This document shows positions 15,603-40,789 of a stretch of 41,374 nt of DNA, one piece after another. Every line of letters begins with the position of its first letter. Within the stretch, counting starts at the first letter, position 1. The position numbers were made by a program, and so were the translations under genes. The notes under the pieces were generated by a model. That model was not told where the DNA came from and did no database searches. It saw only the letters and a program-made list of their open reading frames with translations. This DNA is from an uncultured Thermoplasmatales archaeon (GTDB lineage Archaea > Thermoplasmatota > E2 > DHVEG-1), in assembly GCA_964601295.1 (NCBI GenBank), contig CAZRMY010000004.1, positions 1 through 41,374 of the forward strand. Direction: 5' to 3'.

Positions 15603-18600
15603 TTAATCGCAGCAGTCTCCGACTGGTGCTGGACTCCCCGGGATGAATATGTAGTTGATGAGATAGACTGCGTCACTGACATTAATAGTGTCATCGCCGT
15701 TTGCATCTCCGATACAAAGTGGATCAGGTGCCGATGAACCTAAGAACACATAGTTTATGATGAACACAGCATCTGATACATTGATCAACCCGTCATCATT
15801 GACATCTCCACAAAGATATGGTGATTGTTCCATTATAGTTGTTGCCGTCATTTGATTATTAGAAGGATTTTCATCACCTGTAAGACTTGTGGTTATCTTC
15901 ATACCATAAATACCCGGTATAGCATTCCAAGATGGGATAAAATCACAGTAGGCGGTTGACAACGCGTCTATTTCCATGGTTTGTTCACAGGTGTACACGA
16001 TGTCTCCGGGGTCGCGCGTTTCTTCTGAGACGATTTCAACGTCATCAAGGTTCCAGTAGTCGATGTCGTAGTAGTATCCATCGTATTCGAATCGTACTTG
16101 TGTTCCTGAGCCTACATCGTGTCCGATGGGTATGGTTTCGTATTGTGGGCCGACATCAGCATGTATTGGGTTGGTCCATGGGGTGACATCTGTCCAGGTG
16201 TCAGCTTGGTCTGCGCGGGTGTATACGCGGCAGTATATGTCGTTGTCGTTACCCGCGAAATCTTCGATGTAGTGGTTGAATTTGAGGTGTAGATTTGCCG
16301 CTCCGTTGGTGTCTACTGGTGGTGTGTCAAGGTAGGAGTAGTCGCCGTTGATGAGACTCCAACGGAGTCGTATCTCTGGTGCGGTTCCTCCGGCGTAGTT
16401 GTTTGGTCTGAGTTCCCATTCAGGGTTGTCTGGTTCTTCTTCTACCCAGCCTGCTGGTGGGTAGCCTTGGGTGAAGTTTTCGTAGAGGAAAGTTCCAAAG
16501 ATTCCTTCAGTTATCGTACAATTCACGGTAACCAGTTGGCTGGTGTCTCCGTTGTTCTCAATTGTTGCATTCACTATATGATTCCCTGCATAGTGCTCAC
16601 CTGTTGGATAGTTGATGCTGTGTACACCAACATCCGTGTATGGTTGTATAGTAACAATAAGTTCTGTACCATCATTTTCCGGGTATTCATCACCAGGAAG
16701 CTGGGTGAATACCTGTATTGTATAATCATCGGGTGTGATCACTGACCATGCAGATGAAAAATCAACATACCTGCTACTTAAAAGTTCCACATAAACATCT
16801 TCGGTTTCAGAGTATACTAGCGAAGAGGTTTGATCATAGATTTCACAGGTTATTGGCACCATATGCGAAATACTACCAAAGTTTTCAACAGTGGCATTGA
16901 TAATATAATTCCCTGGTCGTTGTATGCCGGTTGGATAGTTAATTGCTGTAACTCCGGTGTCATATCCAGGGATAACAGAAACGGCAGTGTCACTCAAATT
17001 GTTTGCTTGTACTTCATCTCCAAATAACATGGTCTGTACCTGAATGGTATAGTCCCCGGGATCTGCAGACCAGGGTGTGGTAAATACAATGTGATCATCT
17101 GAAAGCGCGGGAATATATATTGATTCAACTGTGGAATAAATATCTGTTAGACCGTCGTTTATTGTGCAGAGAACAGGTATTGATTCATCTTGATCACCAA
17201 GGTTTTCTATCGATGCATTAACATAGATATCACCTGGCTGTATAATTCCTGTTGGATAGTTTATCCCAGCGCATGCTACATCAGTAAAGGGTTGGATTTG
17301 AACATCGATAACCCATGCGTCGTTGTTAGGCTGTGCATCATCAGAAAGAACGGAGGCTACCTGAATGGAATATATACCTTCTTCTGACACAGACCATGGT
17401 GGTGAAAACTCTGCAAACTTCTCCTTCAACGGATCAATAAATACCGATGTAGTTGATGAGTAAACAAGTGTATCTAAATCATCATAGATTTCACATTCAA
17501 GTGGTATTATTTGTCCAACGCTCCCATAGTTTTTCGCCGTGACATTAACGGTAAAGTCCCCGGGTCTATTAAGCCCTGTAGGATAATTTATGGTTGTTAC
17601 GCCACCGTCATTAGCTGCAATAATCTGTATTCCCGTGGTCTTTTTATCATTAGCCGTCTCTTGATCACCAGGTAATAATGTGGTCACTTTAATCCCATAA
17701 GTACCAGGTAAGGCATTCCATACAGGGCTGAATTCTATATCTTTTGTTTGATAAGCATCTAGATCAACTGTTGTTTCAGCGCTGTAAATGATATCACCAG
17801 TATCCCGGGATGCTGATGATACACAAACATCGTCGATATACCAGCCAAGGTGTGGTGTAACGGTTGTTGTTCCACAATGCCATCGAAGCAGAATGGTTTC
17901 TCCCTCATAACTTGTGAGATCAAATGTCACCTCAGTCCAATCAGCTGTTTCACCATTTGTATAGCAGGGCTCATTAGGGATTCCTGTATTGCTTGATGAA
18001 GCAGTATCTGGATAACCTCCTTCTGGGTATATCAACGTCCAGGTTGCACCATTATCCGTTGAGATTTTTACATTACCTCCATCGTATGCCCCACCGGTGA
18101 AATCATACCAATGCCAGAAGGTTAACTGTGGTTCAACAAAACCTAGGAGATCAATGGGTATTGAATCAAGTACCATGTCTCCATAGTTGTTGAAATTTCC
18201 TGCTAAATTAGTGGCCCATACATTTACCCCTGAATGCGCGCTGGAGGGACCTGAGGTAGGAGTTCCCCATTCCCAGTCATCATATGTTCCAGATCCGGGT
18301 CCAACATCATGTGTGTATCCACCATCGTCTATCTCAAAATCTTCTTCGTAGGATACCGATCCTTCGATAATAGTGCAGTTAACTACAACATCAGTTTGAT
18401 CTGCGCTTCCATAATTTGTTACCGTCGCGTTTACAGCATAGCTATCTGGTGGAGCAACCTCGGTTGGATAATTAATTGATAACGTTCCAACATCATTTGC
18501 AAGAACAATATTTAATGTTATCGGGATTTCAAGCAATGGTTCATCTGGGTCGTTACTTGATACATGAATGGTTTCCTGATAGATTCCAACATCGAGTCCA

Positions 18601-21600
18601 TAGGTTGACAATATTACATCAATTTCGATTGTGGAATTTGGCTGCAATTCACCAGTTGTAGGTGTAACTGACAGCCAGCCATCAGTGTTGGTATATGTTA
18701 TATCAAACGTGAGATTTTCACCAGCAATTTCATCATTACCAATAGTTAATGTTTCTGTAACCGTTAGTTCACTTGGTGAGTTAATAGAATAACTCTCAGG
18801 GTCAATCCATATTTCAGGTACAAGTGTGACATCAAATGCATAAGGATCTGCAGCTCCTATATAGGGATCATCAATGATATTCCCTCCAGTGTCTTCAGCA
18901 TGAATGTAGTATTGTACTGTTTCACCGCAGGGCTGAGGCGGTATGTATGCTTGATAATAGTCTCCACCTACATGTGTCATTTGAACAGAGTTCCATGCTC
19001 GTTCATCGAGCTGCCAATACAAGAGCACGGATTCGGGTATGAGATCAAGATCGCTGTAAGGTACAACACGTGCGTTTACCAGGAATCCATTATCACTAGG
19101 GAAGCCATTTGACAGTGGTGTATGATCGATGTATATCATATCGATATCTGGTATCCCTTTGGCGCGACAGTGTATTGCATCAGTGGTTTCCCAAGAGCCA
19201 GTAAAACCAAGGACTTCATAACCGGGCATTGCTGTCTGATATGAGGTAATTGCATCGTCATCCCATGATGACGTTCCATCCATAGGGACAAATACTTTGT
19301 CATTTAAAATAAGTGAGTTAATATATGGTTCACCATCTGGTGTGTACACCCGTACTATGTCATAAGGTGTTCCATAACAACTTATTTGATTTTCAAAGTA
19401 TGACACCGCTGCTTCAAGTTCATCATATTGCGAGTGACTCGGTGGCACCTCGATTATCATAATGGTATCCGGTGATAATAGTTTCGCCCAACAGTCAATA
19501 TGTTCTATGTATTCACCTAAAGCATCATCGGCAACATGATAGGTATGGATTCCAAGATAATCAGCTACCATCTCATCAATGTCGCTTGGCGTCAAACCAG
19601 GGTTTTCTGTGTATACAAGATCAGTTGATATTGCTATACCTTCTCCATCGGTCATATAGTTGCCTCCCGCGGTTTCGAGGTTCATAAACGATAGATTTAA
19701 ACCTTGGTCAACCGCAAAAGCATTTGGGATCGCATTGTCATCCGGACGGGGCCGATTGTAGGTGAAATCTACGACTTCTAACTCATTATTGACATTGTAA
19801 ATAAACCACGGTCCGTAATCACGTGTCCAATAGGTATCTGATGGAGCTATTAGAAAATCTGTATTTGCCATGGTAACACCCGCTGAGCTGTACATGTTCT
19901 CTACAGTGGTTTGTTCAGAGGTTGAGGCGACTATCGTGGTAACAATTACGTCCTCTGACATCTCAGCAATCATATTTACCGGCAGACCAAGTGGATATCT
20001 AACTAGCACCCCATCCATATGTTCGAATTCAGCTGGCTGCCGTTTCGATACCACCTGAAGCGTGGTAATATACGTCTCAGTGTTATAACCGGTTATCACT
20101 AAATCTACTTCATCTATATCACTGATAGGTTCAGTAAAGGTAATAGTAGCTTGACCATTTTCATCGGTATACGCGTAGCCTAATAGTTCATAGTTGTAGG
20201 AGATTGCGCATAACGCATTATCCAGTCCCACAACTTCAACATCAAATGATGTTACGCCTTCCAGAATTATTGGGTTATGGTTAACCGTGATATCTGCAGG
20301 GGTATCAGTTCGCACCTGTAGGGAAGGATCACCAAAGATTGTCCATTGATCGGTTACGTAATAGTAGCTGGACCCATATTCATCATTCATAAGCATACAG
20401 CCTTGAAAGGAAAGCGCACCAAATGAATGTTGAATATTAGCAGGATACGTTTCGACTAAAATATCATTCATTTCATCTTGCGCAGCCATCGGTGGATCCC
20501 ACGGTTGATTATCTGATCCAGCGAAAACAGCGATAGCACCTGTTGGCTCACCATTATGTACCTCTCGCATTAATTTCTCTGCAAAACATGCATCATAATC
20601 ATCAAACATACCACATTTACAGGCAACAATCCACATAAACGGCAACATATTGTCATTAGTGAGATCGTCGATATCATCATTTGTATACCAGCTACCTGCT
20701 GAATTCCAATAAAATTCTTGAGGGCCTCCATGACCACAGTAATTGAGAATACTTCGCCCTTCATTTAACACGAGATTCAGATCAGCTGCAGAGGGGTTAC
20801 CATCAGCGTCCTGTCCACCTTGTGAACCACCGTATATTTCATCAACTTGAGAATACGTATATCCAAGGAGATCAGTACGGATATTTCGTATATGTTCCCA
20901 ATCCCATTCATTGTCATCTCCTGTTCCTTCATCTGAACCAACCCCAACACCTTTCGCATACCAATCATCTCCTAATTGCGGATATTTTTCATATTCAATC
21001 GTTCTTTCCACCTGGGTTTGTAAATCAGCTGTGTTTGAAGCAGAGAATCTTCCGATAAATAGATCCGGATAGTGATCTATACCATCAACATAGGTATAAC
21101 TTGGATCGGATGCTGCATAGCTTGATTCCAGAGATGGAATCTGCGCTATATCGCCGACTAACAAAACAAACGTTAACCCATTTGTCAAGTAATAGTTTTC
21201 AATATATGTGTCAATCGCAGAGGCAGTTGTTCCTACATCAGAAACATTAACCATTTCAGTTGGAATGCCTTTCATGTTTTTCCATTCCAAAAATGGCACC
21301 ATTGTGTCCCAAAAAGTGTCATAGGTTATAATCAACATATTTCCAATTTCAGTAACTGGTGTATACGTTAATCCCGGTTCGCCATAGTTTACAAAATGTC
21401 TCTTATATATCTGCTCAAAGTCAGCATCTATCTTCTCAGGGAACTCAGAGCGATGGATACAATTCAAAGTATCTTCAACATTTGTTTTTACAACTTCTAA
21501 GGTAATATCTGTATAAACTCTAAGTTGATGGTGTATTGGATTATACTGGAAGGGATATACTGTTACTACCTGCCCTCTGTAATCACGTAAAATATAAGGA

Positions 21601-22190
21601 TCGCTTAACTCAGCTACCTTATTTGGATACCAGGTGTCTTGAATATAAACATCGGCAAATTCATGAGGGACAGTTGCCGGATCAACTGTTCTCAGTATGT
21701 CACCTTTTGAAGGGGGAACTCGTATATCGATAGTTTCATAATTCACGTTGATTATCTGGGTATCCATTTTGGCGGTGTCATCTACAATAACACTTCTGGA
21801 AATTTTCGGTAACTCAGGGTATCCTTTATGTACTAAGGATGGCTCTCCGCCAAGGATAACTTTATGGTATATCTCATCGTCGATTTCAAGTGTTTCTGTT
21901 GTATACTCATGAATGCTATAACTGATGATTGTGGACTCCTGAGATTGATCTATGGTTATAGTCAGCGGGTCAGCATCTCTTGTTGTATGTGGGTTTACCT
22001 CAGTGTTTTCAAGAGTACTCTCTTGGGATACACTATCCGGCACTATAGTTACGGAGCTATTTGTTATTTCTTTTTGATTTGTGAAACCCCCTTGCAAAAC
22101 TGGAAAAGCAGTTGTCATCAAAAACAAAGAGATCATAAATACTATTGTACGGCTGCCTTTATTTTTTAGGTTAAAATAGTTTTTTTTCAT
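15603..22190 (-). CDS. Giant secreted multidomain protein: signal peptide, C25 propeptide-like region, peptidase C25 (gingipain-like), Ig-like, PAD_porph-type arginine/agmatine deiminase domain, Ig-like domains, five CARDB-like repeats (two with nested jelly-roll inserts), dockerin-like tail
   Basis: Uninterrupted 2195-aa ORF. N-terminal hydrophobic segment IVFMISLFLMTTAFPVLQG. SD-like GGGGGT at 22199-22204. Domain motifs are listed under the sub-features. Confidence 0.9.
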   Translation of the reverse strand: MKKNYFNLKNKGSRTIVFMISLFLMTTAFPVLQGGFTNQKEITNSSVTIVPDSVSQESTLENTEVNPHTTRDADPLTITIDQSQESTIISYSIHEYTTETLEIDDEIYHKVILGGEPSLVHKGYPELPKISRSVIVDDTAKMDTQIINVNYETIDIRVPPSKGDILRTVDPATVPHEFADVYIQDTWYPNKVAELSDPYILRDYRGQVVTVYPFQYNPIHHQLRVYTDITLEVVKTNVEDTLNCIHRSEFPEKIDADFEQIYKRHFVNYGEPGLTYTPVTEIGNMLIITYDTFWDTMVPFLEWKNMKGIPTEMVNVSDVGTTASAIDTYIENYYLTNGLTFVLLVGDIAQIPSLESSYAASDPSYTYVDGIDHYPDLFIGRFSASNTADLQTQVERTIEYEKYPQLGDDWYAKGVGVGSDEGTGDDNEWDWEHIRNIRTDLLGYTYSQVDEIYGGSQGGQDADGNPSAADLNLVLNEGRSILNYCGHGGPQEFYWNSAGSWYTNDDIDDLTNDNMLPFMWIVACKCGMFDDYDACFAEKLMREVHNGEPTGAIAVFAGSDNQPWDPPMAAQDEMNDILVETYPANIQHSFGALSFQGCMLMNDEYGSSYYYVTDQWTIFGDPSLQVRTDTPADITVNHNPIILEGVTSFDVEVVGLDNALCAISYNYELLGYAYTDENGQATITFTEPISDIDEVDLVITGYNTETYITTLQVVSKRQPAEFEHMDGVLVRYPLGLPVNMIAEMSEDVIVTTIVASTSEQTTVENMYSSAGVTMANTDFLIAPSDTYWTRDYGPWFIYNVNNELEVVDFTYNRPRPDDNAIPNAFAVDQGLNLSFMNLETAGGNYMTDGEGIAISTDLVYTENPGLTPSDIDEMVADYLGIHTYHVADDALGEYIEHIDCWAKLLSPDTIMIIEVPPSHSQYDELEAAVSYFENQISCYGTPYDIVRVYTPDGEPYINSLILNDKVFVPMDGTSSWDDDAITSYQTAMPGYEVLGFTGSWETTDAIHCRAKGIPDIDMIYIDHTPLSNGFPSDNGFLVNARVVPYSDLDLIPESVLLYWQLDERAWNSVQMTHVGGDYYQAYIPPQPCGETVQYYIHAEDTGGNIIDDPYIGAADPYAFDVTLVPEIWIDPESYSINSPSELTVTETLTIGNDEIAGENLTFDITYTNTDGWLSVTPTTGELQPNSTIEIDVILSTYGLDVGIYQETIHVSSNDPDEPLLEIPITLNIVLANDVGTLSINYPTEVAPPDSYAVNATVTNYGSADQTDVVVNCTIIEGSVSYEEDFEIDDGGYTHDVGPGSGTYDDWEWGTPTSGPSSAHSGVNVWATNLAGNFNNYGDMVLDSIPIDLLGFVEPQLTFWHWYDFTGGAYDGGNVKISTDNGATWTLIYPEGGYPDTASSSNTGIPNEPCYTNGETADWTEVTFDLTSYEGETILLRWHCGTTTVTPHLGWYIDDVCVSSASRDTGDIIYSAETTVDLDAYQTKDIEFSPVWNALPGTYGIKVTTLLPGDQETANDKKTTGIQIIAANDGGVTTINYPTGLNRPGDFTVNVTAKNYGSVGQIIPLECEIYDDLDTLVYSSTTSVFIDPLKEKFAEFSPPWSVSEEGIYSIQVASVLSDDAQPNNDAWVIDVQIQPFTDVACAGINYPTGIIQPGDIYVNASIENLGDQDESIPVLCTINDGLTDIYSTVESIYIPALSDDHIVFTTPWSADPGDYTIQVQTMLFGDEVQANNLSDTAVSVIPGYDTGVTAINYPTGIQRPGNYIINATVENFGSISHMVPITCEIYDQTSSLVYSETEDVYVELLSSRYVDFSSAWSVITPDDYTIQVFTQLPGDEYPENDGTELIVTIQPYTDVGVHSINYPTGEHYAGNHIVNATIENNGDTSQLVTVNCTITEGIFGTFLYENFTQGYPPAGWVEEEPDNPEWELRPNNYAGGTAPEIRLRWSLINGDYSYLDTPPVDTNGAANLHLKFNHYIEDFAGNDNDIYCRVYTRADQADTWTDVTPWTNPIHADVGPQYETIPIGHDVGSGTQVRFEYDGYYYDIDYWNLDDVEIVSEETRDPGDIVYTCEQTMEIDALSTAYCDFIPSWNAIPGIYGMKITTSLTGDENPSNNQMTATTIMEQSPYLCGDVNDDGLINVSDAVFIINYVFLGSSAPDPLCIGDANGDDTINVSDAVYLINYIFIPGSPAPVGDCCD
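15606..15815 (-). other. Dockerin-like double EF-hand-type repeat, Cys-bracketed, C-terminus ...GDCCD
   Basis: CGDVNDDGLINVSDAVFIINYVFLGSSAPDPL / CIGDANGDDTINVSDAVYLINYIFIPGSPAPVGD / CCD (aa 2126-2195). Confidence 0.65.
16641..17612 (-). repeat. Three intact tandem CARDB-like domain repeats (about 107 aa / 321 nt period; aa 1527-1850), flanked by two further split copies (overall aa 1232-2120, nt 15831-18497)
   Basis: Recurring pattern (T/N)D(G/V)G(V)..INYPTG..(R)PG...VNA(T/S)(V/I)EN(F/L/Y)GS.....V.C.I.D....YS.T..V.......V.F...W.....G.Y.IQV.T.L.GD....N(N/D). Confidence 0.7.
19131..20033 (-). other. PAD_porph-family guanidino-group modifying domain (peptidylarginine/agmatine deiminase-like; aa ~718-1020)
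   Basis: Ordered family signatures: QPAEFEHMDGVLVRYP, WTRDYGP (nt 19809-19829), ETAGGNYMTDGEG, IEHIDCWAKLL, YINSLILNDKVFVPMDG and TDAIHCRAKG (Cys1008, nt 19167-19169). Confidence 0.7.
20316..21353 (-). other. Peptidase C25 (gingipain-like, clan CD) catalytic domain of the 2195-aa protein (aa ~280-625)
   Basis: FVLLVGDIAQIPS. His context ILNYCGHGGPQ (His487, nt 20730-20732). Cys context MWIVACKCGMFDD (Cys524, nt 20619-20621). Upstream propeptide-like region has KGYPELPKISRSVIV and RGQVVTVYPFQYNPIHHQLRVYTDITLEV. Confidence 0.75.
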
Positions 22191-22344: not shown

Positions 22345-25300
22345 TTAATCACAGCAGTTTGACACTGGCGGGGGTCCATTTGAGAAAATGTAATTTATGA
22401 GATGCACAGCATCGCTTACATTGATTTGACTATCTCCATTTGCGTCGGCGCTGCATACTGGATGTGGCTCTGGACTGCCGGGGGTAAACACATAATTGAT
22501 GATAAACACAGCATCGCTTACATTGATAATTCCATCGGTGTTAACATCGCCACATAGTACGGGTACTTCTTCCATTATTATTGTTGCTCCAGTGTAGTCA
22601 TTTGAGGTGTCTTGGTCATCAGGGAGTAATGTAGTTATTGTTGCGCCATATGCGCCTGCAGTGGCATGCCATGGTGGGTTAAATTCGACTACAGCGGTAG
22701 AATATGCTTCAACCTCCACTGTTGCTTCACAGGTGTAGACGATGTCACCGGGGTCTCGAGGGTTTTCTGAAATCAGTAATACGTCGTCGATGTACCAGTA
22801 ATCGATATAAAAATAATAGCCTTCGTATTCGAATCTTACCTGGGTTGCGGGTCCTGAGTCAAAACCGATGTCTATGGTGACATATTCCGGTCCGACATTA
22901 TTGTAAATAGGGTTAGACCATGGGGTTACATCAGTCCAGGTATCTGTAGTTTCAGCTCGGGTGTATACTCTACAATAAATGGGATCGTCACTGTTTTCAT
23001 AATCATCGATCCAATGGTTGAATCGCAGTTGAAGTTGTGCGGCACCGACGGTATCTACGGGTGGTGTCTCTATGTACGAGTAGTCACCATTGATGGAATT
23101 CCAATGGAGCCGCATTTCGGGTGCGGTACCACCAGCTCTATTGTTTTGATATGTCTGCCATTCATTTGCATCTGGTTCTTCGACAGTCCAACCTGCTGGT
23201 GGGACGCCTCCAGAAAAATTTTCTGATAAGAACGTTCCGAAAATCCCTTCAACAATTGAACAATTTACTAGGACATTGGTTTGATCTATGCTCCCAAAAT
23301 TTTCTATGACCGCACTAATCGTGTGTACACCTGCCGGTAGTGGTTCTAACGGATAATTTAAGCCTATGGGACCCACATTGTTTTCATATACAACATTAAG
23401 CACAACGGGGATGATAACCGTGGCTTCATCAAGATCATTAGTTGTTAATACAACAGATGCCTCGTAGATTCCTTCTGCTAAACCATTTGTATCAAATACG
23501 ACATCAAGAGTTTGCTCCATTCCAACCGGGACGAAAAGTGTTTCTGGTGTAACAGACAGCCAGCTAGGGTTATCTAGAAAGGAGACGTCTCCGGTTAACT
23601 GCGCTTCAGCATATTGTTCATTCCCTACTATTATGCTTTCGGTATGTATTACGCCTTCATTGAGATTAATGGAATACTCTGTTGGTGACACCCAAATGTC
23701 GGGCACAGGGATTACTTCAACTTCTTTAGACATAGCATTGTTTAGGATATAGTTTTCTCCAGGTATGGGTACTACCTCTACATTAACATTATGAAAACCA
23801 AAATCAGGGAACCAATCAAAGCTAACTTGATGTGATTCACCGAGATCAAGAGAGTTAATGAATTCAACATCCTCTGTTGTGCCATCAATGACAAAATTGA
23901 CAGTTATCGCACTTTCGTTATTTAATCCACAGTTAAGCACATTGGCAGTAATTGTAACTGATTGATTATGTGGCAATATATCTTCTACGTCTAAATCTAG
24001 CACACCAATATCATGATCATCAGCAGGTTGTTTAATTCGCTGCGCTGGATCACCGAAGAGCAGGCAGCTTTCGATAACGCCTCGCCAGGTTTGATCATAA
24101 TAATCCCATCCTATCGTCGGGGCCATAGTATCTTTTGACCATGCCTGGGCTCGCCCCATCTGCCAGTTGTCTCTGTCATTTGAATTGTTGGTGATGTCAA
24201 ACAAGTAATCCCAGAAACTTTTTTGTTGCACTGCGCTACTTGAGTTAGTGGTATAATAATTACCCCAACCGTACCCAGTATTGTACACACATGCAAACGC
24301 AAGCTCGGTATCTGAATGAAACAACATGGAATGCAATACTCCATCTCCTGCAGCGCTCATGTCACCGCAGTGGCAGCCGTAATCATGTAGGAAGAATGGT
24401 TTTGTGTTGTGATACTGTGATTCCCAGTTATAATCATACACATCCATCGACATATATTCATTTGCATGAGCTATCGCACTAATCAGCGTTACCTGATCAT
24501 TGTTAATCGCGCTTTTTAACCCATTGATCGCTGAGTATTCCGAGCCACCTGACCACCCAGGGTTAGGTGATTCTGCTGTCCATTTCACAGAAAGATCATA
24601 CGGTACTGCAGGGTTATTATTATTCCAGGTTTCAAACCCATATTGAAACCCAAGCCAGGTTGGATATGGTCCGCTATCTCCAGGGTAGGGTCCAAGGTAA
24701 TTAGCTAACCCTTTGATTGCACTATAATCAATAAAATCATCACCCTGTGCGCTCCAGCTGGTATCTCCACCATAAAAACCTGCATTATTTAGATACTCGG
24801 GGTCATAGGCATCCGCGTAATAGAAACTTTTTGTCATCCAGTTCGAAAGATCAAGGCCTGTGTCACAGGGGAGAGAACCAATGAATAACTCGGAGTATAA
24901 ATCAAACCCAGCGTCATTACTTTCTCCCCATTGATAATCAGAATCAGCATTAAAATTGTTATCTAGATTCGACCAATAAAGATCAGATTCGACATTCTCT
25001 TGGTATTCCCCAAGACCATAATGTAACAGTCTGCGAGGTATTCCGGCAACTCCTTCATGATCCCCAGCTATCAGAATATATTGCGTACCCCAATCCTGGT
25101 ATGCATCCTTACAAAATTCACGAATCTTAGCGGCAGTATCATTAAACAAACTTGTGGGATTCCAATAATCTGAACATGTTATAATATTTTCAACAGATAC
25201 TTTAGATGTTGATAATCCCTCAGCTTCTTTTCGACTGATAAAATCATCCCAAGTATATGCGGTACCTGAAAAATTCATCAACGATTCTCTGGTAATGATA

Positions 25301-26142
25301 ACATAGTCATACTCGTCACTTGAATCACAGAGACCACCAGAATAGCCGATATCACCTAATGGCAGAGTATTATACCTCTTCGTACCATCTGGGTTACACA
25401 CTAAACTCTCTACCCAAACTCTATCATCGGCTCTGTTACGATAGAATTGATTAATATAATCAGTGTTTTCCATTTCTATTTCCACGGTTAATTCAGAATA
25501 ATAAGAGAGCTTTCCATCAGATGGAATATACTCAATAGGGTTAAGCGAAATATCACATATCGTATAACCACGACAATACCCAATATGAAAATCCTCATAT
25601 CTTTTCTTGGGAAACACCTCAGATGAATCATAAACCTGCGAATCAATCCTAATTTCAAAAGACTCTTTCTTCAAGCCTAAAGGCATTGAACTCTGATACG
25701 GCAAAATAGGAGTATCAATAAGATCAAAATCCTTAGCATCTATATCATGGGACTGACCAGATACATCCAACGAGATAACCTTTTTCATAGGAGGTAGTAA
25801 TATTTTCGCGAAACTCACGGGTAAAAATGGCTGACCGACACCTCTTCCGACATTCATCACACCCGGCATACTTATTTTAGTAAATTCATGCGAAGGCAAA
25901 ATAACATGATCTAACACTGGTTCACTAAATTGAAAAGTATAACTGAGTACGTCCAGTTGTTCCTTTTGTACCCCTAGCGCATCATTGTTTTCATAAAAAG
26001 ATACCTGCTGATTTTCATTAACTATTATTCTATTTGACACGCCGATTGTTGCAGAGATTGATGTGAATATCAATACCGTGCATATCATTAAGCAAATGCC
26101 TTTTCCACTTTTTTTACTATCTGTAAAAATTTTATCTCTCAT
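22345..26142 (-). CDS. Large secreted C25-family (gingipain-like) protein with CARDB-like and Ig-like domains, CARDB-like domain with nested jelly-roll insert, and dockerin-like tail
   Basis: Uninterrupted 1265-aa ORF. Signal-like ICLMICTVLIFTSISATIG. SD-like GGGGGT at 26150-26155. Propeptide-like GVGQPFLPVSFAKILLPP and CDISLNPIEYIPSDGKLSYYSELTVEIEM. C25-like YILIAGDHEGVAGIPRR. aa 921-1265 are colinear with aa 1851-2195 of the neighbouring giant protein. Confidence 0.88.
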   Translation of the reverse strand: MRDKIFTDSKKSGKGICLMICTVLIFTSISATIGVSNRIIVNENQQVSFYENNDALGVQKEQLDVLSYTFQFSEPVLDHVILPSHEFTKISMPGVMNVGRGVGQPFLPVSFAKILLPPMKKVISLDVSGQSHDIDAKDFDLIDTPILPYQSSMPLGLKKESFEIRIDSQVYDSSEVFPKKRYEDFHIGYCRGYTICDISLNPIEYIPSDGKLSYYSELTVEIEMENTDYINQFYRNRADDRVWVESLVCNPDGTKRYNTLPLGDIGYSGGLCDSSDEYDYVIITRESLMNFSGTAYTWDDFISRKEAEGLSTSKVSVENIITCSDYWNPTSLFNDTAAKIREFCKDAYQDWGTQYILIAGDHEGVAGIPRRLLHYGLGEYQENVESDLYWSNLDNNFNADSDYQWGESNDAGFDLYSELFIGSLPCDTGLDLSNWMTKSFYYADAYDPEYLNNAGFYGGDTSWSAQGDDFIDYSAIKGLANYLGPYPGDSGPYPTWLGFQYGFETWNNNNPAVPYDLSVKWTAESPNPGWSGGSEYSAINGLKSAINNDQVTLISAIAHANEYMSMDVYDYNWESQYHNTKPFFLHDYGCHCGDMSAAGDGVLHSMLFHSDTELAFACVYNTGYGWGNYYTTNSSSAVQQKSFWDYLFDITNNSNDRDNWQMGRAQAWSKDTMAPTIGWDYYDQTWRGVIESCLLFGDPAQRIKQPADDHDIGVLDLDVEDILPHNQSVTITANVLNCGLNNESAITVNFVIDGTTEDVEFINSLDLGESHQVSFDWFPDFGFHNVNVEVVPIPGENYILNNAMSKEVEVIPVPDIWVSPTEYSINLNEGVIHTESIIVGNEQYAEAQLTGDVSFLDNPSWLSVTPETLFVPVGMEQTLDVVFDTNGLAEGIYEASVVLTTNDLDEATVIIPVVLNVVYENNVGPIGLNYPLEPLPAGVHTISAVIENFGSIDQTNVLVNCSIVEGIFGTFLSENFSGGVPPAGWTVEEPDANEWQTYQNNRAGGTAPEMRLHWNSINGDYSYIETPPVDTVGAAQLQLRFNHWIDDYENSDDPIYCRVYTRAETTDTWTDVTPWSNPIYNNVGPEYVTIDIGFDSGPATQVRFEYEGYYFYIDYWYIDDVLLISENPRDPGDIVYTCEATVEVEAYSTAVVEFNPPWHATAGAYGATITTLLPDDQDTSNDYTGATIIMEEVPVLCGDVNTDGIINVSDAVFIINYVFTPGSPEPHPVCSADANGDSQINVSDAVHLINYIFSNGPPPVSNCCD
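22348..22557 (-). other. Dockerin-like double repeat, Cys-bracketed, C-terminus ...SNCCD
   Basis: CGDVNTDGIINVSDAVFIINYVFTPGSPEPHPV / CSADANGDSQINVSDAVHLINYIFSNGPPPVSN / CCD (aa 1196-1265). Confidence 0.65.
24028..25320 (-). other. Divergent peptidase C25-like domain of the 1265-aa protein (aa ~275-705)
   Basis: YVIITRESL, YILIAGDHEGVAGIP, candidate His context LISAIAHANEY, candidate Cys context LHDYGCHCGDM, and terminal LLFGDPAQRI (compare TIFGDPSLQV in the paralog). Confidence 0.55.
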
Positions 26143-26870: not shown

Positions 26871-27743
26871 ATGGCAATCGTGATAGTTTCTTCTTTTGAG
26901 GATCCTGCTGGAACGAATATTACCTCCCAACTACAAAAACTTTCATCTTGGCACACGATAGATTCATTTAACAATCAGCCGGTTTATGCATCCGATGAGT
27001 TTTCACAGGTATTGTTGACGTTTATTGATGATCGAACAATTTTCCATGAGCATCTTGATAAAGAGTTACAAAGCGCTCTTAGGATATCTATTGATACATT
27101 GGTTATCGCTTCAAGGCATACTAGTAAAAAGGGCATCCCAACGCTTACAGTGCATCCTATTGGGAATTATGGCAACGCTGATTTTGGCGGGCGATCGCAC
27201 ACGTTAGTTCCTGCTGCACCAGTCATAATGACTTCGTTACTGCGTAATATTAAAACTAACACTCGAAATAGCAATCTCGATCATCAGGTTTGTTTCGAGG
27301 TAACACATCATGGCCCACTCGTAAGTGTACCAACAGTGTATATAGAAATAGGAAGTACTGAGGTAGAATGGAAGAGATTTAAACCCGCGGAGGTCATCGC
27401 CCAATCAATTTTGGATTTTTTTATAGCTCAGAAAAATGGAAGAAACTTGCAGAACCATAATCACGTGTTAATTGGTATAGGTGGGGGCCATTATGCACCT
27501 CGGTTTTCTGATGTTGCCTTTCAGAAAAAGGTGGTTTTTGGTCATATGATTCCATCGTACCAAGTGAATGCAGGGAATATCTTGGAAGATATCCTTGAAA
27601 AGACTGTTCAGTCGACTCCAAGGGTGTCGGGCGTGTATTTCCATAAAAAAGCGTTACGTAAATCATGGATACATACGGTGTCCTCATGGTTTACTGATAA
27701 AGGGATTGCCATAGTATCAAGTAAAGATTTACCTGATTTATGA
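26871..27743 (+). CDS. dtdA: D-aminoacyl-tRNA deacylase, archaeal DtdA (Dtd2) type
   Basis: 290-aa ORF. N-terminus MAIVIVSSFEDPAGTNI, internal TVHPIGN and LIGIGGGHYAPRF are typical of the archaeal tRNA_deacylase family. Confidence 0.7.
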   Translation: MAIVIVSSFEDPAGTNITSQLQKLSSWHTIDSFNNQPVYASDEFSQVLLTFIDDRTIFHEHLDKELQSALRISIDTLVIASRHTSKKGIPTLTVHPIGNYGNADFGGRSHTLVPAAPVIMTSLLRNIKTNTRNSNLDHQVCFEVTHHGPLVSVPTVYIEIGSTEVEWKRFKPAEVIAQSILDFFIAQKNGRNLQNHNHVLIGIGGGHYAPRFSDVAFQKKVVFGHMIPSYQVNAGNILEDILEKTVQSTPRVSGVYFHKKALRKSWIHTVSSWFTDKGIAIVSSKDLPDL

Positions 27744-28667
27744 ATGAAGGTTTTTAGTGGCCAGTAGATGTGCTTGTCGTAAGGGTTCAGGTTGTTTATA
27801 TGTACAGAGGTTCTTAACGATAGTATTTGCGGTTGAAAAAGAGATGTTGTTTCCTGGTGAGATGTAAATGGGCTTTGTTGCGCGAGGTGAACTATGTAGA
27901 AGGGTCCCCCGTAGTTCATTTTGATAATATATTTTGTTGTCTTGAGGCTTCCCAATAAGTAGATTTTTGGCAACACCTATCGTTGGTATTTGCGTTGTTG
28001 CTCCTACGTGTGCGGCTAATCCAAGTTTATATGGGTGAAGGATGCCATTGCCATCCAGTAGTAATACTGAGGGTTTTGTTTGTATTTTCTTTAAAAGAAT
28101 GGTGATAAAGGGGAGTTCCCGGAAGGTTAGATATGTGGGGATATATGGGAAGGTGCTGCAGTGAAATATGAGATGTTTCTCGATGATTTCTTTGGTACGA
28201 TAGTTGAGTGCGATGTATGCGCCACAGGCTTTTTCAAAAGCGTTTTTCGGGTATGCGACATCTATTCCTGCAACTATGTTGATATTGGTGAATGTGTCTT
28301 GGAGTGTAATTTTTTTTGATAGTTGTATTTGTTTCTCACGAAGTTTTTTAAGGGGATAGGTGGTGGTAAAATCATCAAAAAATACTTGTTGAAAGTCATC
28401 GATGTAGCCGTTGGTCACGGTGATGTTGTCTTGCTGTAAACGTCTGATTTTATCTTGTATCCCTCGTCCGAATCCTCCGAGTCGTCCATCGGAGTGTACT
28501 ATTTTGTAGCAGGGCATGGTATCTGCGTTGGGGTTTTGGTTCATCATGTACCCCACGGCTCTTGATGCGCGTATGTCTCCTAGGGCTTTAGCTACTGCAC
28601 CGTATGAGGATATTTTCCCGGGTGGGATTTGACGGACGAGATCGTAGGTGTATTCGAAAAGGTTCAT
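27738..28667 (-). CDS. nfi: Fusion protein: O6-alkylguanine-DNA alkyltransferase-like DNA-binding domain (variant PCYK site) + endonuclease V
   Basis: 309-aa ORF. aa 1-~90: VRQIPPGKISSYGAVAKALGDIRASRAVGYMMNQNPNADTMPCYKIVHSDGRLGGF (AGT C-terminal domain; PCYK at nt 28503-28514). aa ~100-309 carry EndoV motifs VAGIDVAY, YLTFRELP, LLLDGNGILHPYKLGLAAHVG and PTIGVAKN. Confidence 0.82.
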   Translation of the reverse strand: MNLFEYTYDLVRQIPPGKISSYGAVAKALGDIRASRAVGYMMNQNPNADTMPCYKIVHSDGRLGGFGRGIQDKIRRLQQDNITVTNGYIDDFQQVFFDDFTTTYPLKKLREKQIQLSKKITLQDTFTNINIVAGIDVAYPKNAFEKACGAYIALNYRTKEIIEKHLIFHCSTFPYIPTYLTFRELPFITILLKKIQTKPSVLLLDGNGILHPYKLGLAAHVGATTQIPTIGVAKNLLIGKPQDNKIYYQNELRGTLLHSSPRATKPIYISPGNNISFSTANTIVKNLCTYKQPEPLRQAHLLATKNLHS

Positions 28668-29596: not shown

Positions 29597-30598
29597 TTGA
29601 GTGAGACGGGTACGTGGCAATCAATGTTAAAACACTATCATGCTATTCTTGAGGAGCATGCACTACCACGGTATGTGCTGTCGAAGTATGTGCCTGTGGA
29701 TTACTCTGGCTCTGAATCTGTTTCGGGTTTATGGGAACTTCATAAAAAGGCTTTTGGTGGGTACAAGGTTGAAGATGTTTGTCCAGATCAGTCGCTATTG
29801 GATTTAAAAAGGGAGCTTGCGCAGCATATTTTTTCGTCTTGTGTTTTTTGTGAGCATCGATGTCAAATAGATCGAAATCAACAGGCTGGGGCATGTGGCG
29901 TACAAAAAGCTCGTATTGCCTCTGAATTTTTACATATGGGCGAGGAACCGTTTTTGATTCCTTCGTATACTGTTTTTTTCTCAGGGTGTACGTTTCAGTG
30001 TGTGTTTTGTCAGAATTGGGATATTAGTCAGCAGCTGTGTGGACTGGAGGTTGCGCCAGATAAGTTAGCTGAGTTGATTACAGTGAGGACGCGTGAGGGT
30101 GCGCGGAATGTGAACTGGGTTGGGGGTGATCCTACATCCAATCTTTTGTATATTCTTGTAGTTTTAAATTCATGTACTAGTGATATCCCTCAGGTGTGGA
30201 ATTCAAATATGTATTGTTCTGAGGAAACTATGCGATTGTTAGATGGTGTGATTGATGTCTTTTTAACTGATTTTAAATATGGGAATAATGGGTGTGCGCA
30301 ACGATTGTCAAAAGTACCTAATTATTGGGAGGTGGTTACCAGGAATCATCGGTTGGCAGGTGAGCAAGCAGAGGTGGTGATACGTCATCTGGTGTTACCG
30401 GGGCATGTTGAGTGTTGTTCAAAACCGGTTATGAGATGGATTGCTGAATTTTTGCCTGAAGCCGTGGTGAATGTGATGGGTCAGTATCATCCTGCGTATC
30501 AGGCTCAGCGTTATGACGAGCTTGCATTTCCGGTTGATCAACGAGAGGTTGAGCAGGTAAAAGAGTATGCACAGCAGCGGGGGTTGTTTCTTGTTTAA
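29597..30598 (+). CDS. Radical SAM protein, PflX-like (COG1313-type homolog of pyruvate formate-lyase activases)
   Basis: 333-aa ORF (TTG start in the track; alternative ATG at 29624). N-terminal Cys cluster CVFCEHRCQIDRNQQAGACG. Radical SAM motif FFSGCTFQCVFCQNWDISQ. Confidence 0.68.
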   Translation: MSETGTWQSMLKHYHAILEEHALPRYVLSKYVPVDYSGSESVSGLWELHKKAFGGYKVEDVCPDQSLLDLKRELAQHIFSSCVFCEHRCQIDRNQQAGACGVQKARIASEFLHMGEEPFLIPSYTVFFSGCTFQCVFCQNWDISQQLCGLEVAPDKLAELITVRTREGARNVNWVGGDPTSNLLYILVVLNSCTSDIPQVWNSNMYCSEETMRLLDGVIDVFLTDFKYGNNGCAQRLSKVPNYWEVVTRNHRLAGEQAEVVIRHLVLPGHVECCSKPVMRWIAEFLPEAVVNVMGQYHPAYQAQRYDELAFPVDQREVEQVKEYAQQRGLFLV

Positions 30599-32340
30599 TA
30601 TAATCGTCTGTTGTATGTGAAGTACATGATGATGCCGATTGCAAGGATGATGACAACAATCAGGGCTAGGATCCCGTGAGAAAAGGCATTCTGGTTGATG
30701 ATAGTAATCGTGGTAGTGGCCGTGGTGTAGCCTGTTTTTACGGTTCGTATCGTATAGGTTTCATCCCAGTTTACCTCTGATGCAGTAAATGAGACGATGC
30801 CGATGGCATTGGTTTTTTTGGTGGTGTCTCTGAAGGTGACATCTGCGTTGGCGATGGGTGTGTTGTCGATGGAGCGGATGGTGACGTTGAATAGCTGGTT
30901 TTCTTGGATGCGTGGTGGTGCATGAATGTAGAGTTGTTTTTGTGTGTGGTTTGCAGTGGTGGTATCAAGTATTTTTATAGATGCCGTAGTAGGTCTATAT
31001 CCTTCTTTGTGAATTTGGATCTGGTAGTGTTTGTCAAAGGTTACCTCTGGTGCTGTGAATACTGTTGCACCATTGTCATTTGTTTGTTGTGTGTGATGGT
31101 TGAAGGTCACTTGAGCGGTAGGTATTGGATAGAAAGTATCATCGTGGATGAGTATGGAGAATTCCTCGTTTTCGTAGACGGTTCGTTCGTAGGTGGGGTA
31201 TAGGTTGTTTGGGCTCTGTGCTCGTATGGTGAGTGTTTCTTCTGCGTAGTTATAGCCATGTTTTTGCGCGTAAAAATAGCATTCACGATCAATGGGCGTG
31301 TACGGTGCGTTGGTGGTGAGTATTCCTGCAGTGTCGGTGGTTGAGAGTAGGGCATCCTGGTATTGGATGCGTGCATCAGGGATTGGTTGGTTTGAACTAT
31401 CGGTGACCATGAACGTGATGGGCGCTCCTTGTGTTACCTCGGTTGGTGTGATGGTTAATACAAGGTTTTCTGATGCAGAGTTGTTGATTAGGGTTATTGT
31501 GTGTGTGGTGGTGCCGGTGAAGGTTTGGTACCTGTTTTTGGTGAATATGAGGTAACAGCTGTTGGTTTCGGTTAGGGCGGGGGTTGAAATGGTTGCAGTG
31601 CCTGTGGCGTCTGTTGTGTATTCTTGTATTTTTGAATCATTGTAGTAGAGTTCTATGAGAACATTTGGGATGCCGGTGGTGATTCCTTGGACCATTATGT
31701 CGATGTTTTCTTGGTTTGGTGGGAGGATTGAAGGGGCGATTAATTCCATGAGTTGTGTCCCTTGTCCTGCTTCATAGATCTGTAGAACGCTTGTGTTGGT
31801 GAGGTATCCGGTTTTGTTTACGCGTATGCCATAGTTGGTGGTTATGAGTACATCTGGTGCGGTGATGATTGCCTGGCCTGTAGTATTTGTATGATAGGTT
31901 ATTGTGTTGAAAAGTAGGGTTGCATCGCTGATTGGGTGTAGTCCGTCGGTTACGGTAACTGTAAATGAACTGTTCTCAAGAATGGGTTCTGAGGGGGGCT
32001 GAAGTTGAAGGAGACTGGTGGTATTTTTTACAAAAATGGTATGCGTTGCTTGCTCTCCGTTTGGCAGAGATGCAGTTACGGTGTAGAATCTTCCTTGCGC
32101 TGGGACAGTAGGCATAGTAAAAGTTATTCGGCCTGTGGAGATGTTCGAGTACACTGGCGTTGTCTGCCCCTGGAGAAGTACACGTGCTTGCACGGGGGTA
32201 TTATCATATGTTATTGTGAAGGTGACACTATCATTTTGGTATGCTTCAATAGGGCCATCGATATGGAACTTTGATATAGAACCTGTGGCAGCAGTACTTA
32301 CCATAAGTAAAAGTAGTAGCAGTGTTAGAAACCCTTTCAT
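30595..32340 (-). CDS. Surface protein with six tandem carboxypeptidase-regulatory/Ig-like repeats and a C-terminal TM anchor
   Basis: ORF 30595..32367 (GTG). ATG at 32340 gives MKGFLTLLLLLLMVSTAATGS (signal peptide-like). Six ~85-95-aa repeats share the ..(P)I(S/P/A).A.(V/L).F......T(N/D)..G.....AP(D/E)V......I...K.GY motif. Many N-x-T/S sequons. C-terminal ILALIVVIILAIGIIMYFTY then NRRLY. Confidence 0.55.
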   Translation of the reverse strand: MKGFLTLLLLLLMVSTAATGSISKFHIDGPIEAYQNDSVTFTITYDNTPVQARVLLQGQTTPVYSNISTGRITFTMPTVPAQGRFYTVTASLPNGEQATHTIFVKNTTSLLQLQPPSEPILENSSFTVTVTDGLHPISDATLLFNTITYHTNTTGQAIITAPDVLITTNYGIRVNKTGYLTNTSVLQIYEAGQGTQLMELIAPSILPPNQENIDIMVQGITTGIPNVLIELYYNDSKIQEYTTDATGTATISTPALTETNSCYLIFTKNRYQTFTGTTTHTITLINNSASENLVLTITPTEVTQGAPITFMVTDSSNQPIPDARIQYQDALLSTTDTAGILTTNAPYTPIDRECYFYAQKHGYNYAEETLTIRAQSPNNLYPTYERTVYENEEFSILIHDDTFYPIPTAQVTFNHHTQQTNDNGATVFTAPEVTFDKHYQIQIHKEGYRPTTASIKILDTTTANHTQKQLYIHAPPRIQENQLFNVTIRSIDNTPIANADVTFRDTTKKTNAIGIVSFTASEVNWDETYTIRTVKTGYTTATTTITIINQNAFSHGILALIVVIILAIGIIMYFTYNRRLY

Positions 32341-32513
32341 TAGAACGCTTGATCGTTTGTGAAGCACTGTTAATCCCTCCTCATAGGTACACAGTGTGTG
32401 ACTGTAGTATATGGGAGATAACGCTGTCGATATTTAACTTTTTGTCGCTGGTGATACCTAAATGTTATTAAAACTTTCATTGCTTACCCTTTTTTATCTG
32501 GGGTGAATCCTGG

Positions 32514-39619: not shown

Positions 39620-40789
39620 TTATAGTCCTGCTTCTTTTTTCAAAAGTTTAGCTTTATCTGTTTTTTCCCAGGTGAAATCAGGATCATTTCTGCCAAAATG
39701 ACCGTATGCAGCGGTTTTTGTATATATCGGTCGAAGCAGATCCAGGGTTTCGATGATCTCACCAGGTGTTGTTGGGAAAAACTTGCGGATGAGATCTTCT
39801 ATGTGCTCGATGGGTATTTTATTAGTTCCAAAGCAGTTTATGTTAATGGATACCGGTTCAGCGACACCAATAGCGTAGGCGAACTGGAGTTCACAATGGT
39901 CTGCGATGCCTGCGGCGACAATGTTTTTTGCAATGTATCGAGCGGCATATGCCGCACTTCGATCTACTTTAGTAGGATCTTTTCCGGAGAACGCGCCACC
40001 ACCATGACGTCCAATGCCACCATACGTGTCAACGATGATTTTACGGCCGGTTAACCCTGCGTCTGCGTAGGGTCCTCCGCGGACAAACGCGCCAGTGGGA
40101 TTCACATAGATTTTAGTGTCTTTATCTATCCATTCTTTGCAGATAGGTTGGATAACATGGGTGACAATATCTTTTTTTATTTTGTTATGTGATATACCGG
40201 GGTCATGTTGTGTAGATACCACTATGGCATCAGCCCGGAGAGGTTTTCCGTTGTTATCGTATTCGATGGTCACTTGTGATTTCCCATCTGGTCTGAGATA
40301 TGAGATACTACCATTTTTACGGTTTTCACTAAGTTTTTTTGCAAGTTTATGTGCTAGGGCGATGGGTAGCGGCATGAGTTCTTTGGTTTCATTGCAGGCG
40401 TATCCGTACATCATCCCTTGGTCGCCGGCTCCTTGTTTTTTATGGAGGCCTTTTCCCGCGGTGACTCCTTGGGAGATATCAGGGCTTTGTTCTGTTATTT
40501 GTACCCACACCGAGCAGGTTTCCCATTCTATGCCATATTCTGATTTAGTGTATCCAATGTTTTTGATTACCTCGCGGGCGACAGTGGGGACATCAACATA
40601 GGCTTTGGTGGTCATTTCGCCGAAGACCATGATGCCACCGTTTTTTGTCCCGGTTTCTACTGCTACGCGTGAGGTGGGATCTTGGCGGAGTGCTTCGTCA
40701 AGGATAGCATCTGATATCATGTCGCATATTTTATCAGGGTGCCCCTCGGTTACTGATTCTGAGCTGATGAGTATTTTTCTTTTTGCCAT
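39620..40789 (-). CDS. metK: S-adenosylmethionine synthetase, bacterial/eukaryotic MetK type
   Basis: 389-aa [59 protein letters not shown] and [20 protein letters not shown] lies 10 nt upstream of the ATG. Confidence 0.93.

Follow-up and report, generated by a model that had tools for sequence, protein, structure and literature searches.

A secreted archaeal protein predicted to join an RgpB-type gingipain and a PPAD-type deiminase in one chain

Can the protease and the deiminase that act in series in Porphyromonas gingivalis be carried by a single polypeptide, and by an archaeon? This question is raised by a stretch of 41,374 nucleotides (nt) from an uncultured Thermoplasmatales archaeon (contig CAZRMY010000004.1 of assembly GCA_964601295.1; the whole stretch is called the window here). 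An earlier inspection of its letters without database searches, referred to below as the sequence-only reading, had proposed that a gingipain-like C25 protease and a Porphyromonas-type deiminase are fused in one secreted archaeal polypeptide. Our analysis bears this out: an RgpB-like protease and a PPAD-like deiminase lie in a single open reading frame (ORF), both pass their family profiles, and the contig is archaeal. We give a probability of about 0.75 to the reading that the product, a protein of 2195 amino acids (aa), is a secreted, dockerin-tethered bifunctional enzyme of Thermoplasmatota that would cleave proteins after arginine and then deiminate the resulting C-terminal arginine.

The first of the two enzymes is a gingipain of the RgpB type. 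In a phmmer search against the PDB, RgpB (1cvr) was matched at E=7.7e-76 with 36% identity over 448 aa, and the Pfam model Peptidase_C25 (PF01364) was matched over aa 285-625 (E=3.7e-51, 174.9 bits against a cut-off of 23). An AlphaFold model was built for aa 276-1130 from a 52-sequence alignment (mean pLDDT, the predicted local distance difference test, 91.8; pTM, the predicted template modelling score, 0.78) and superposed on known structures by Foldseek. The predicted fold aligned with the catalytic and immunoglobulin-like (Ig) domains of RgpB at a template modelling (TM) score of 0.95 and a root-mean-square deviation of 1.5 A over 446 columns. The Lys-gingipain (Kgp) type was ruled out, with E=3e-13 and a TM score of 0.77, and so was the PorU-type C25 sortase of the type IX secretion system (T9SS), whose model NF033707 reached 44.9 bits against a cut-off of 420.

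Individual residues were mapped with HMMER alignments, and the numbering was checked on published RgpB His211 and Cys244 and on PPAD Cys351, Asn297 and His236. In RgpB, Asp163, Gly210, Gly212, Gln282 and Trp284 have roles in the S1 pocket, Asp163 is the sole side chain that forms a salt bridge with the P1 arginine, and Arg126 of the prodomain is the residue inserted into S1 (PMC4357240). All of these residues have identical counterparts in the archaeal protein (Table 1), which would be consistent with Arg-X specificity, and the catalytic dyad is conserved across all homologues checked. Compared to RgpB (MEROPS C25; PDB 1cvr and 4ief), the archaeal protein thus shares the propeptide with its inhibitory Arg, the caspase-like catalytic domain, the Ig domain and the His/Cys dyad. 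It differs from RgpB in its archaeal host, in a long display region and dockerin that replace the T9SS C-terminal domain, in the covalent attachment of a deiminase downstream, and in the junction between propeptide and mature protease, which is taken up below.

The second enzyme is a deiminase of the PPAD type. PPAD (4yt9) was matched in the PDB at E=1.7e-92 and 314 bits, with 45.5% identity across 314 aa and just one gap, of 4 residues, whereas agmatine deiminases reached 54 bits at most (E from 1e-14 to 1e-4). The Pfam model PAD_porph (PF04371) was matched over aa 719-1008 (E=1.6e-28, 100.3 bits against a cut-off of 25), and with Peptidase_C25 and Propeptide_C25 also above their cut-offs, the profile comparison proposed in the sequence-only reading came out as that reading had anticipated. 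The structural comparison did so as well, since the predicted fold superposes on PPAD (4ytb) at a TM score of 0.93 and 1.6 A over 413 columns, compared to a TM score of 0.78 at most for agmatine deiminases. Because this alignment to 4ytb spans the catalytic and immunoglobulin superfamily (IgSF) domains, aa 1027-1125 can be assigned as a PPAD-type Ig domain. The agmatine deiminase (AguA) type was tried and rejected: the equivalog model TIGR03380 reached 40.2 bits against a cut-off of 381.8, and NF010070 reached 44.7 against 483.

Crystal complexes and mutagenesis have shown that Arg152, Arg154 and Tyr233 of PPAD grip the substrate's free C-terminal carboxylate and make the enzyme an exo-deiminase (PMC4893104, PMC4487231). 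Their equivalents Arg813, Arg815 and Tyr894, together with the higher structural similarity to PPAD, point to a PPAD-like rather than an agmatine-type pocket and would favor exo-deiminase specificity in the archaeal domain as well. In a 52-sequence alignment (A2), all eleven PPAD positions listed in Table 1 are kept in six of eight fused and 21 of 22 stand-alone homologues; the exceptions are P0004, with Ser at Tyr233, P0005, which is a truncated sequence, and P0185 (locus L038), a divergent archaeal paralogue. The carboxylate clamp itself is kept in all but two of the 30 PPAD-like sequences of A2, namely P0004 (Tyr233 to Ser) and P0185 (lacking Arg152 and Tyr233). Like PPAD (PDB 4yt9, 4ytb and 5ak7), the archaeal deiminase has a catalytic and an IgSF domain, the five catalytic residues and the clamp. 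Unlike PPAD, it sits in the middle of a long chain, lacks its own signal peptide, propeptide and T9SS C-terminal domain, and has a loop before the catalytic Cys that is four residues shorter. The paralogue at L038 (10001-10942, in the Thermoplasmatales genome CP070798) has an altered clamp, with R152 replaced by F, Y233 by V and I234 by K, and no RgpB-like C25 neighbour; it may represent a subfamily with a different substrate.

The two enzymes are joined directly. The gingipain Ig domain runs straight into the PAD core (the catalytic core of the PPAD-type domain); neither a tail nor a stop codon, an intergenic spacer or a second signal peptide intervenes. The chain amounts to an entire pro-RgpB with an entire mature PPAD attached behind it, neither of which has its T9SS C-terminal domain. 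No T9SS C-terminal domain model from Pfam or NCBIfam matched the fusion protein, as is expected for an archaeal protein, and its C-terminus is a dockerin instead. Between the PPAD module and the dockerin lie about 1000 aa of BACON-like, CARDB-like and MAM-like display modules. The display region contains five CARDB-like repeats, with the motif INYPT at aa 1239, 1534, 1643, 1750 and 1859. It matched the NCBIfam model choice_anch_J in two stretches (35.8 against a cut-off of 30, best match aa 1303-1460) and, when the tail was scanned in pieces, InhA-like_MAM at 33 bits. The motifs quoted in the sequence-only reading, including WTRDYGP at 19809-19829, fell at the same coordinates when recomputed from the ORF position. 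Its range of 19131-21353 covers the two-enzyme core (aa 280-1020) of what is a far longer gene, and its layout with one Ig spacer was right about the gingipain Ig domain between the enzymes but missed the Ig domain of the PPAD module and the terminal dockerin. No tandem DNA repeats of note were found in the gene. An antisense ORF of 101 aa at 21864-22169 on the plus strand, within the 5' end of the fusion gene, is most likely spurious.

Table 1. Features of the fusion gene and its upstream neighbour, with residues aligned to RgpB and PPAD (window positions)
Feature	Coordinates	Strand	Evidence
Whole fusion gene, 2195-aa secreted multidomain protein	15603..22190	-	One ORF without internal stop; domain matches
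Probable Sec signal peptide, aa 1 to ~34 (MKKNYFNLKNKGSRTIVFMISLFLMTTAFPVLQG)	22089..22190	-	Read from translation: basic n-region, 18-residue hydrophobic core
Propeptide_C25, aa 69-265	21396..21986	-	Pfam PF08126 97.4 bits; RgpB pro-domain 4ief_A E=6e-29
RgpB-type C25 catalytic domain, aa 276-625	20316..21365	-	1cvr E=7.7e-76; Foldseek TM 0.95
Gingipain C-terminal Ig-like domain (Peptidase_C25_C), aa 631-711	20058..20300	-	PF03785 44.9 bits, cut-off 25; RgpB alignment runs to aa 713
PPAD-type deiminase catalytic domain, aa 717-1026	19113..20042	-	4yt9 E=1.7e-92, 45.5% identity
PPAD-module Ig-like domain, aa 1027-1125	18816..19112	-	Foldseek against 4ytb, 413 columns of 422 residues; segment conserved in stand-alone homologues
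BACON-like Ig-fold module, aa 1128-1206	18573..18809	-	PF19190 25.3 bits, at cut-off, segment scanned separately
Display region, aa 1207-2127: CARDB-like repeats and MAM/choice-of-anchor-J-like modules	15810..18572	-	Profile matches, motif positions
Type I dockerin, aa 2128-2181, then C-terminal ...GDCCD	15648..15809	-	PF00404 35.6 to 41.9 bits, cut-off 22.9
Arg167 (RgpB prodomain inhibitory-loop Arg126)	21690-21692	-	Alignment to 4ief_A
Glu421 (RgpB Glu152)	20928-20930	-	HMMER alignment
Asp430 (RgpB S1 Asp163)	20901-20903	-	HMMER alignment
Gly486-His487-Gly488 (RgpB Gly210-His211-Gly212)	His487 20730-20732	-	HMMER alignment
Cys524 (RgpB Cys244)	20619-20621	-	HMMER alignment
Gln562 and Trp564 (RgpB Gln282 and Trp284)		-	HMMER alignment
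Trp788 (PPAD Trp127)			HMMER alignment
Asp791 (PPAD catalytic Asp130)			HMMER alignment
Arg813 (PPAD Arg152, carboxylate clamp)	19752-19754	-	HMMER alignment
Arg815 (PPAD Arg154, carboxylate clamp)	19746-19748	-	HMMER alignment
Tyr894 (PPAD Tyr233, carboxylate clamp)			HMMER alignment
Ile895 (PPAD Ile234)			HMMER alignment
His897 (PPAD catalytic His236)			HMMER alignment
Asp899 (PPAD catalytic Asp238)			HMMER alignment
Cys900 (PPAD Cys239)			HMMER alignment
Asn958 (PPAD catalytic Asn297)			HMMER alignment
Cys1008 (PPAD catalytic Cys351)	19167-19169	-	HMMER alignment
Tandem upstream gene, 1265-aa secreted protein	22345..26142	-	Same strand, 154-nt gap to fusion gene

Genes for the same two enzymes are linked in relatives of this archaeon. 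Linkage was counted in archaeal loci whose PAD is at least 63% identical to that of the window and whose upstream flank could be assessed (n=11). C25 is fused to PAD, or lies close by upstream on the same strand, in 10 of these 11 closest loci: it is fused in L002, L005, L013 and L016, directly upstream in L001, L006, L008, L011 and L012, and separated from PAD by an M14 carboxypeptidase gene in L007. The exception is L015, and a further C25-PAD fusion, at L024, falls outside the 11. According to a rough estimate of the chance level, in a genome of 2-4 Mb with a few C25 genes, any given gene would have one of them within 10 kb in only a few per cent of cases. The linkage supports a coupled cleave-then-deiminate function. 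Among bacteria, the order is reversed (PAD, then C25) in the Bacteroidales loci L020, L027, L034 and L046, and a Marinimicrobia locus (L075) has C25 followed by PAD. Over all, an RgpB-like C25 was found in the same ORF or within 7.4 kb of PAD in 16 of 80 genome loci, many of which lie on truncated contigs. In P. gingivalis itself, rgpB and ppad are far apart.

The adjacent pairs in metagenome-assembled genomes (MAGs) of Thermoplasmatota and Bacteroidales (e.g., L001, L008, L011, L012 and L034) consist of the same two enzymes, encoded immediately next to each other on the same strand; in the archaeal pairs, the C25 and PPAD-like proteins are 55-58% and 63-68% identical, respectively, to the window domains. 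They differ from the window gene in that they encode two secreted proteins, both of which carry a signal peptide and a PKD tail. In these split pairs, the junction sequence of the fused proteins, ...R-QPAEFE..., comes after the signal peptide of the PAD gene. With relatives carrying the two genes side by side, the proposal of the sequence-only reading that the window gene is a Rosetta-stone fusion of the two-step chemistry of P. gingivalis stands. When the ORFs of 20 archaeal loci were clustered, no recurrent neighbours such as transporters or citrulline-catabolic genes appeared beyond the C25, PAD and M14 secreted proteins. A secreted M14 carboxypeptidase is encoded directly downstream of the fused gene in L002 (13859-16885) and between the separate C25 and PAD genes in L007 (7436-8623), which may point to a set of three enzymes that act on C-terminal Arg or citrulline.

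PPAD-type domains are far more widespread than had been assumed. A search of 5.8 billion clusters returned 977 at E<=1e-20, of which the best 120 are all at least 52% identical and mostly represent secreted proteins of 500-550 aa. The best clusters come from Thermoplasmatota, Cloacimonadota, Bacteroidales, Fermentibacteria, Eisenbacteria and others, and are usually annotated as "agmatine deiminase family protein." When 1.84 billion 50%-identity representatives were scanned exhaustively with HMMER, 518 clusters had E<=1e-30, and GTDB species-representative genomes contain at least 589 PPAD-type loci. Among the genome loci, the PPAD of P. gingivalis is closest, at 52-57% identity, to those of Bacteroidales, Cloacimonadota and unclassified bacterial MAGs. 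PPAD has been stated to be unique to Porphyromonas (PMC4487231); judged by homology, the spread of PPAD-type enzymes in uncultured anaerobes contradicts this statement. The sequence-only reading had likewise treated such enzymes as rare in prokaryotes, a view that has to be given up, as they are widespread in uncultured anaerobic bacteria and archaea. Three contigs binned as Gemmatimonadota or Glassbacteria (L004, L017 and L010) carry PPAD-like genes 66-69% identical to the window domain, as close as any Thermoplasmatota match, which suggests mis-binning or recent inter-domain transfer.

The fusion, too, is recurrent. C25 is found in the same chain as PAD in 14 of the top 150 representatives at 50% identity, and several layouts can be distinguished. 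First, PAD directly follows the gingipain Ig domain in the window protein and in P0001-P0005, P0362, P0385 and P0401. Second, it follows another C25 paralogue, only 33% identical to the window C25, in P0367 and L016. Third, an insert of about 150 aa is present in P0006, P0007 and L024, and a spacer of 570-900 aa in the Cloacimonadota proteins P0379, P0396, P0451 and P0468. Two of the fused Cloacimonadota proteins are named "agmatine deiminase family protein" at NCBI. Because there are at least three junction layouts and C25 paralogues only 33% identical to that of the window, these results suggested that the C25-PAD fusion arose repeatedly. The sequence-only reading knew of no described counterpart of this architecture; no paper describing it was found, but the fusion is not singular. 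Literature searches on gingipain or PPAD in archaea and Thermoplasmata yielded no description of the fusion or of C25-PAD linkage.

The assignment of the contig to archaea, and within these to Thermoplasmatota, was confirmed from its genes. The contig encodes a glycerol-1-phosphate dehydrogenase equivalog (471 bits against a cut-off of 413) and an archaeal-type D-aminoacyl-tRNA deacylase (PF04414). The closest named relatives of its glycyl-tRNA synthetase are those of Thermoplasmatales archaeon SG8-52-4 and of Thermoplasmata MAGs, at about 70-73% identity, the best matches overall (up to 76%) being metagenomic proteins. The closest relatives of the C25 domain of the fusion are also found in Thermoplasmatota MAGs. 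Gingipain-type C25 peptidases are already known from sediment archaea of the MBG-D/Thermoprofundales group (PMC6461988, PMC9585477), which share with the window organism the phylum, the C25 family and, as far as relatives indicate, a comparable ecological setting. Those descriptions mention the gingipain but neither a deiminase nor citrulline, and the PPAD partner was apparently overlooked.

In P. gingivalis, RgpB cuts after Arg and PPAD then acts on the C-terminal Arg of the products; 37 fibrinogen peptides with a C-terminal citrulline arise in this way (PMC4893104). From these observations, a sequence of events can be proposed for the bifunctional enzyme. In the zymogen, Arg167 of the C25 propeptide would occupy the S1 pocket, in the manner of the RgpB prodomain, until the propeptide is removed. 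The RgpB-like domain would cut extracellular proteins after arginine by means of the His487/Cys524 dyad, with Asp430 binding the guanidinium group, and each cut would yield a peptide with a C-terminal arginine. The PPAD-like domain of the same chain would then clamp the free C-terminal carboxylate with Arg813, Arg815 and Tyr894 and, via Cys1008, His897, Asn958, Asp791 and Asp899, convert the arginine side chain to citrulline with release of ammonia. The tail of about 1000 aa and the dockerin would tether the enzyme to the cell surface or to a partner protein. The likely beneficiary would be a protein-fermenting sediment archaeon that scavenges detrital protein. The advantage of coupling the two steps could, speculatively, lie in the release of NH3, in the loss of the guanidinium group, so that the product no longer rebinds the S1 site of the protease or sticks to surfaces, or in peptides readied for carboxypeptidases like those encoded by the M14 genes of L002 and L007. 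The purposes suggested in the sequence-only reading, a harvest of nitrogen or citrulline or the modification of surfaces, are likewise speculative.

Several observations weigh against a bifunctional, sequentially acting enzyme. First, the propeptide/mature junction (GEPGLT/YTPV) lacks the Arg that is present in RgpB, and zymogen activation may therefore differ from that of RgpB. Second, coupling of C25 and PAD is not obligatory for the PPAD-like family, because C25 is absent within 10 kb of many PPAD-like genes, archaeal ones at 58-61% identity among them. Third, a Pfam scan of 31 window ORFs turned up no cohesin that could partner the dockerin. Fourth, the fusion may serve co-secretion only. 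The replacement of PPAD Thr180 by Ala841, the only difference at a mutated position, is a minor point, because the T180A mutant of PPAD retains about 66% activity (PMC4487231). On the other side, neither a better match to another family nor a misaligned catalytic residue nor an earlier description of the architecture came to light.

The strongest competing explanation develops the fourth of these points. The protein could be a polyprotein precursor whose Arg-specific domain cuts linker arginines of its own chain (e.g., after Arg717, ...VVSKR/QPAEFE) and so frees separate RgpB-like and PPAD-like enzymes. The fusion would then ensure only co-expression and 1:1 co-secretion, with no intramolecular hand-off and with the chemistry otherwise unchanged. 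Arg717 (codon 20040-20042, minus strand) lies exactly at the Ig/PAD junction, and 196 of 217 homologues (90%), both fused and stand-alone, have an Arg immediately before the PAD core; in the stand-alone genes, the signal and pro region precedes it. RgpA and Kgp are polyproteins that process themselves, and like the window protein they are large secreted C25 precursors with further functional domains after the protease, although theirs are haemagglutinin/adhesin modules and not a second enzyme. However, Arg56 of PPAD, the equivalent of Arg717, lies within the crystallised mature enzyme, A44-A475 (PMC4487231), and the conservation of this Arg may be structural. Furthermore, the pTM of 0.78 suggests that the four modelled domains pack together. 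We consider release of two separate enzymes unlikely, yet the most serious of the alternatives.

A second explanation concerns the target: the pair would mainly process and citrullinate surface or secreted proteins of the archaeon itself, whether for maturation, for charge tuning or to shield their C-termini from carboxypeptidases, with feeding on detrital protein as a lesser role. The PPAD of P. gingivalis citrullinates many of the bacterium's own secreted proteins, the fusion gene adjoins the gene of another dockerin-bearing C25-like protein, and M14 carboxypeptidases are found alongside in L002 and L007. However, the neighbourhoods hold no conserved gene for a specific substrate, and Thermoprofundales gingipains are generally read as degraders of detrital protein, with Arg-directed peptidase activity measured in sediments (PMC6461988, PMC9585477). 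A primarily self-directed role is improbable on this evidence, clearly more so than a polyprotein.

It is far less probable still that the PAD_porph domain is an agmatine or free-arginine deiminase, serving polyamine or arginine deiminase-type metabolism, and that its fusion to a protease is incidental. PF04371 does span both activities, fused homologues bear the agmatine deiminase name at NCBI, and the NCBIfam agmatine deiminase models give weak matches. Set against this are the scores and folds given above, the conserved carboxylate clamp, the extracellular location of the domain and the Ig domain that it shares with PPAD, and its recurrent linkage with an Arg-specific C25. Finally, although relatives do have C25 and PAD as separate neighbours, a joining of adjacent genes by sequencing error, misassembly or gene calling is scarcely credible given the direct junction, and an assembly chimera is rejected because the same junction is present independently in ENA, JGI and GenBank assemblies (P0001-P0005, L005 and L013).

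The protein encoded upstream of the fusion (Table 1) combines Propeptide_C25, a C25-like core that is very divergent, a CARDB domain and a dockerin; its core was matched by RgpB at only 1.5e-07 in blastp and was not matched by the Pfam C25 model. The two neighbours share a C-terminal module of about 540 aa (fusion aa 1655-2195, 46% identity to the tail of the upstream protein), both end in ...CCD, and the two genes are probably co-expressed. Elsewhere in the window, three minus-strand genes deserve mention. The gene at 27738-28667 encodes an Endonuclease V domain fused to an MGMT-type DNA-binding domain, an architecture that occurs in Ferroplasma and Thermoplasmata and that fits the taxonomic assignment. 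The gene at 39620-40789 encodes a bacterial-type S-adenosylmethionine synthetase, MetK (PF00438/PF02772/PF02773), on this archaeal contig. The third, at 30595-32367, encodes a Thr/Asn-rich surface protein of 590 aa with a signal peptide, CarboxypepD_reg-like repeats and a C-terminal transmembrane anchor, and its codon bias explains the strong plus-strand GC skew (+0.40) at 30-32 kb.

Compared to what was known of the two enzymes, the covalent fusion, the archaeal host, the dockerin-based display and the linkage of RgpB-type and PPAD-type partners across many uncultured anaerobes are new. Studies of PPAD have nearly all treated it as a special feature of the periodontal pathogen P. gingivalis; it is also suspected of triggering anti-citrullinated-protein autoimmunity in rheumatoid arthritis, and its native physiological role is still unclear. 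The combined RgpB/PPAD chemistry is probably not a pathogen speciality. The presence of complete RgpB and PPAD modules in free-living organisms argues for a nutritional or environmental primary role over a host-directed one. The generic labels "agmatine deiminase family protein" and "C25 family cysteine peptidase" obscure the connection between the two enzymes. A single polypeptide offers a direct handle on the coupling of both steps, hundreds of natural variants exist, and there is now reason to seek C-terminal citrulline in environmental peptides.

More tentatively, and with somewhat less than even confidence, the cleave-then-citrullinate pair may be regarded as an old and widely shared extracellular cassette of anaerobic protein degraders, found in Thermoplasmatota, Cloacimonadota, Bacteroidales and others and repeatedly fused, and not as a host-adapted invention of Porphyromonas. 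Such a cassette would produce peptidyl-citrulline and ammonia on a large scale in sediments. If this is true, it would represent an unrecognised step in detrital nitrogen turnover, in which the fusion would make each cleavage effectively irreversible, since the product, with its guanidinium group removed, could neither rebind S1 nor stick to mineral or organic surfaces.

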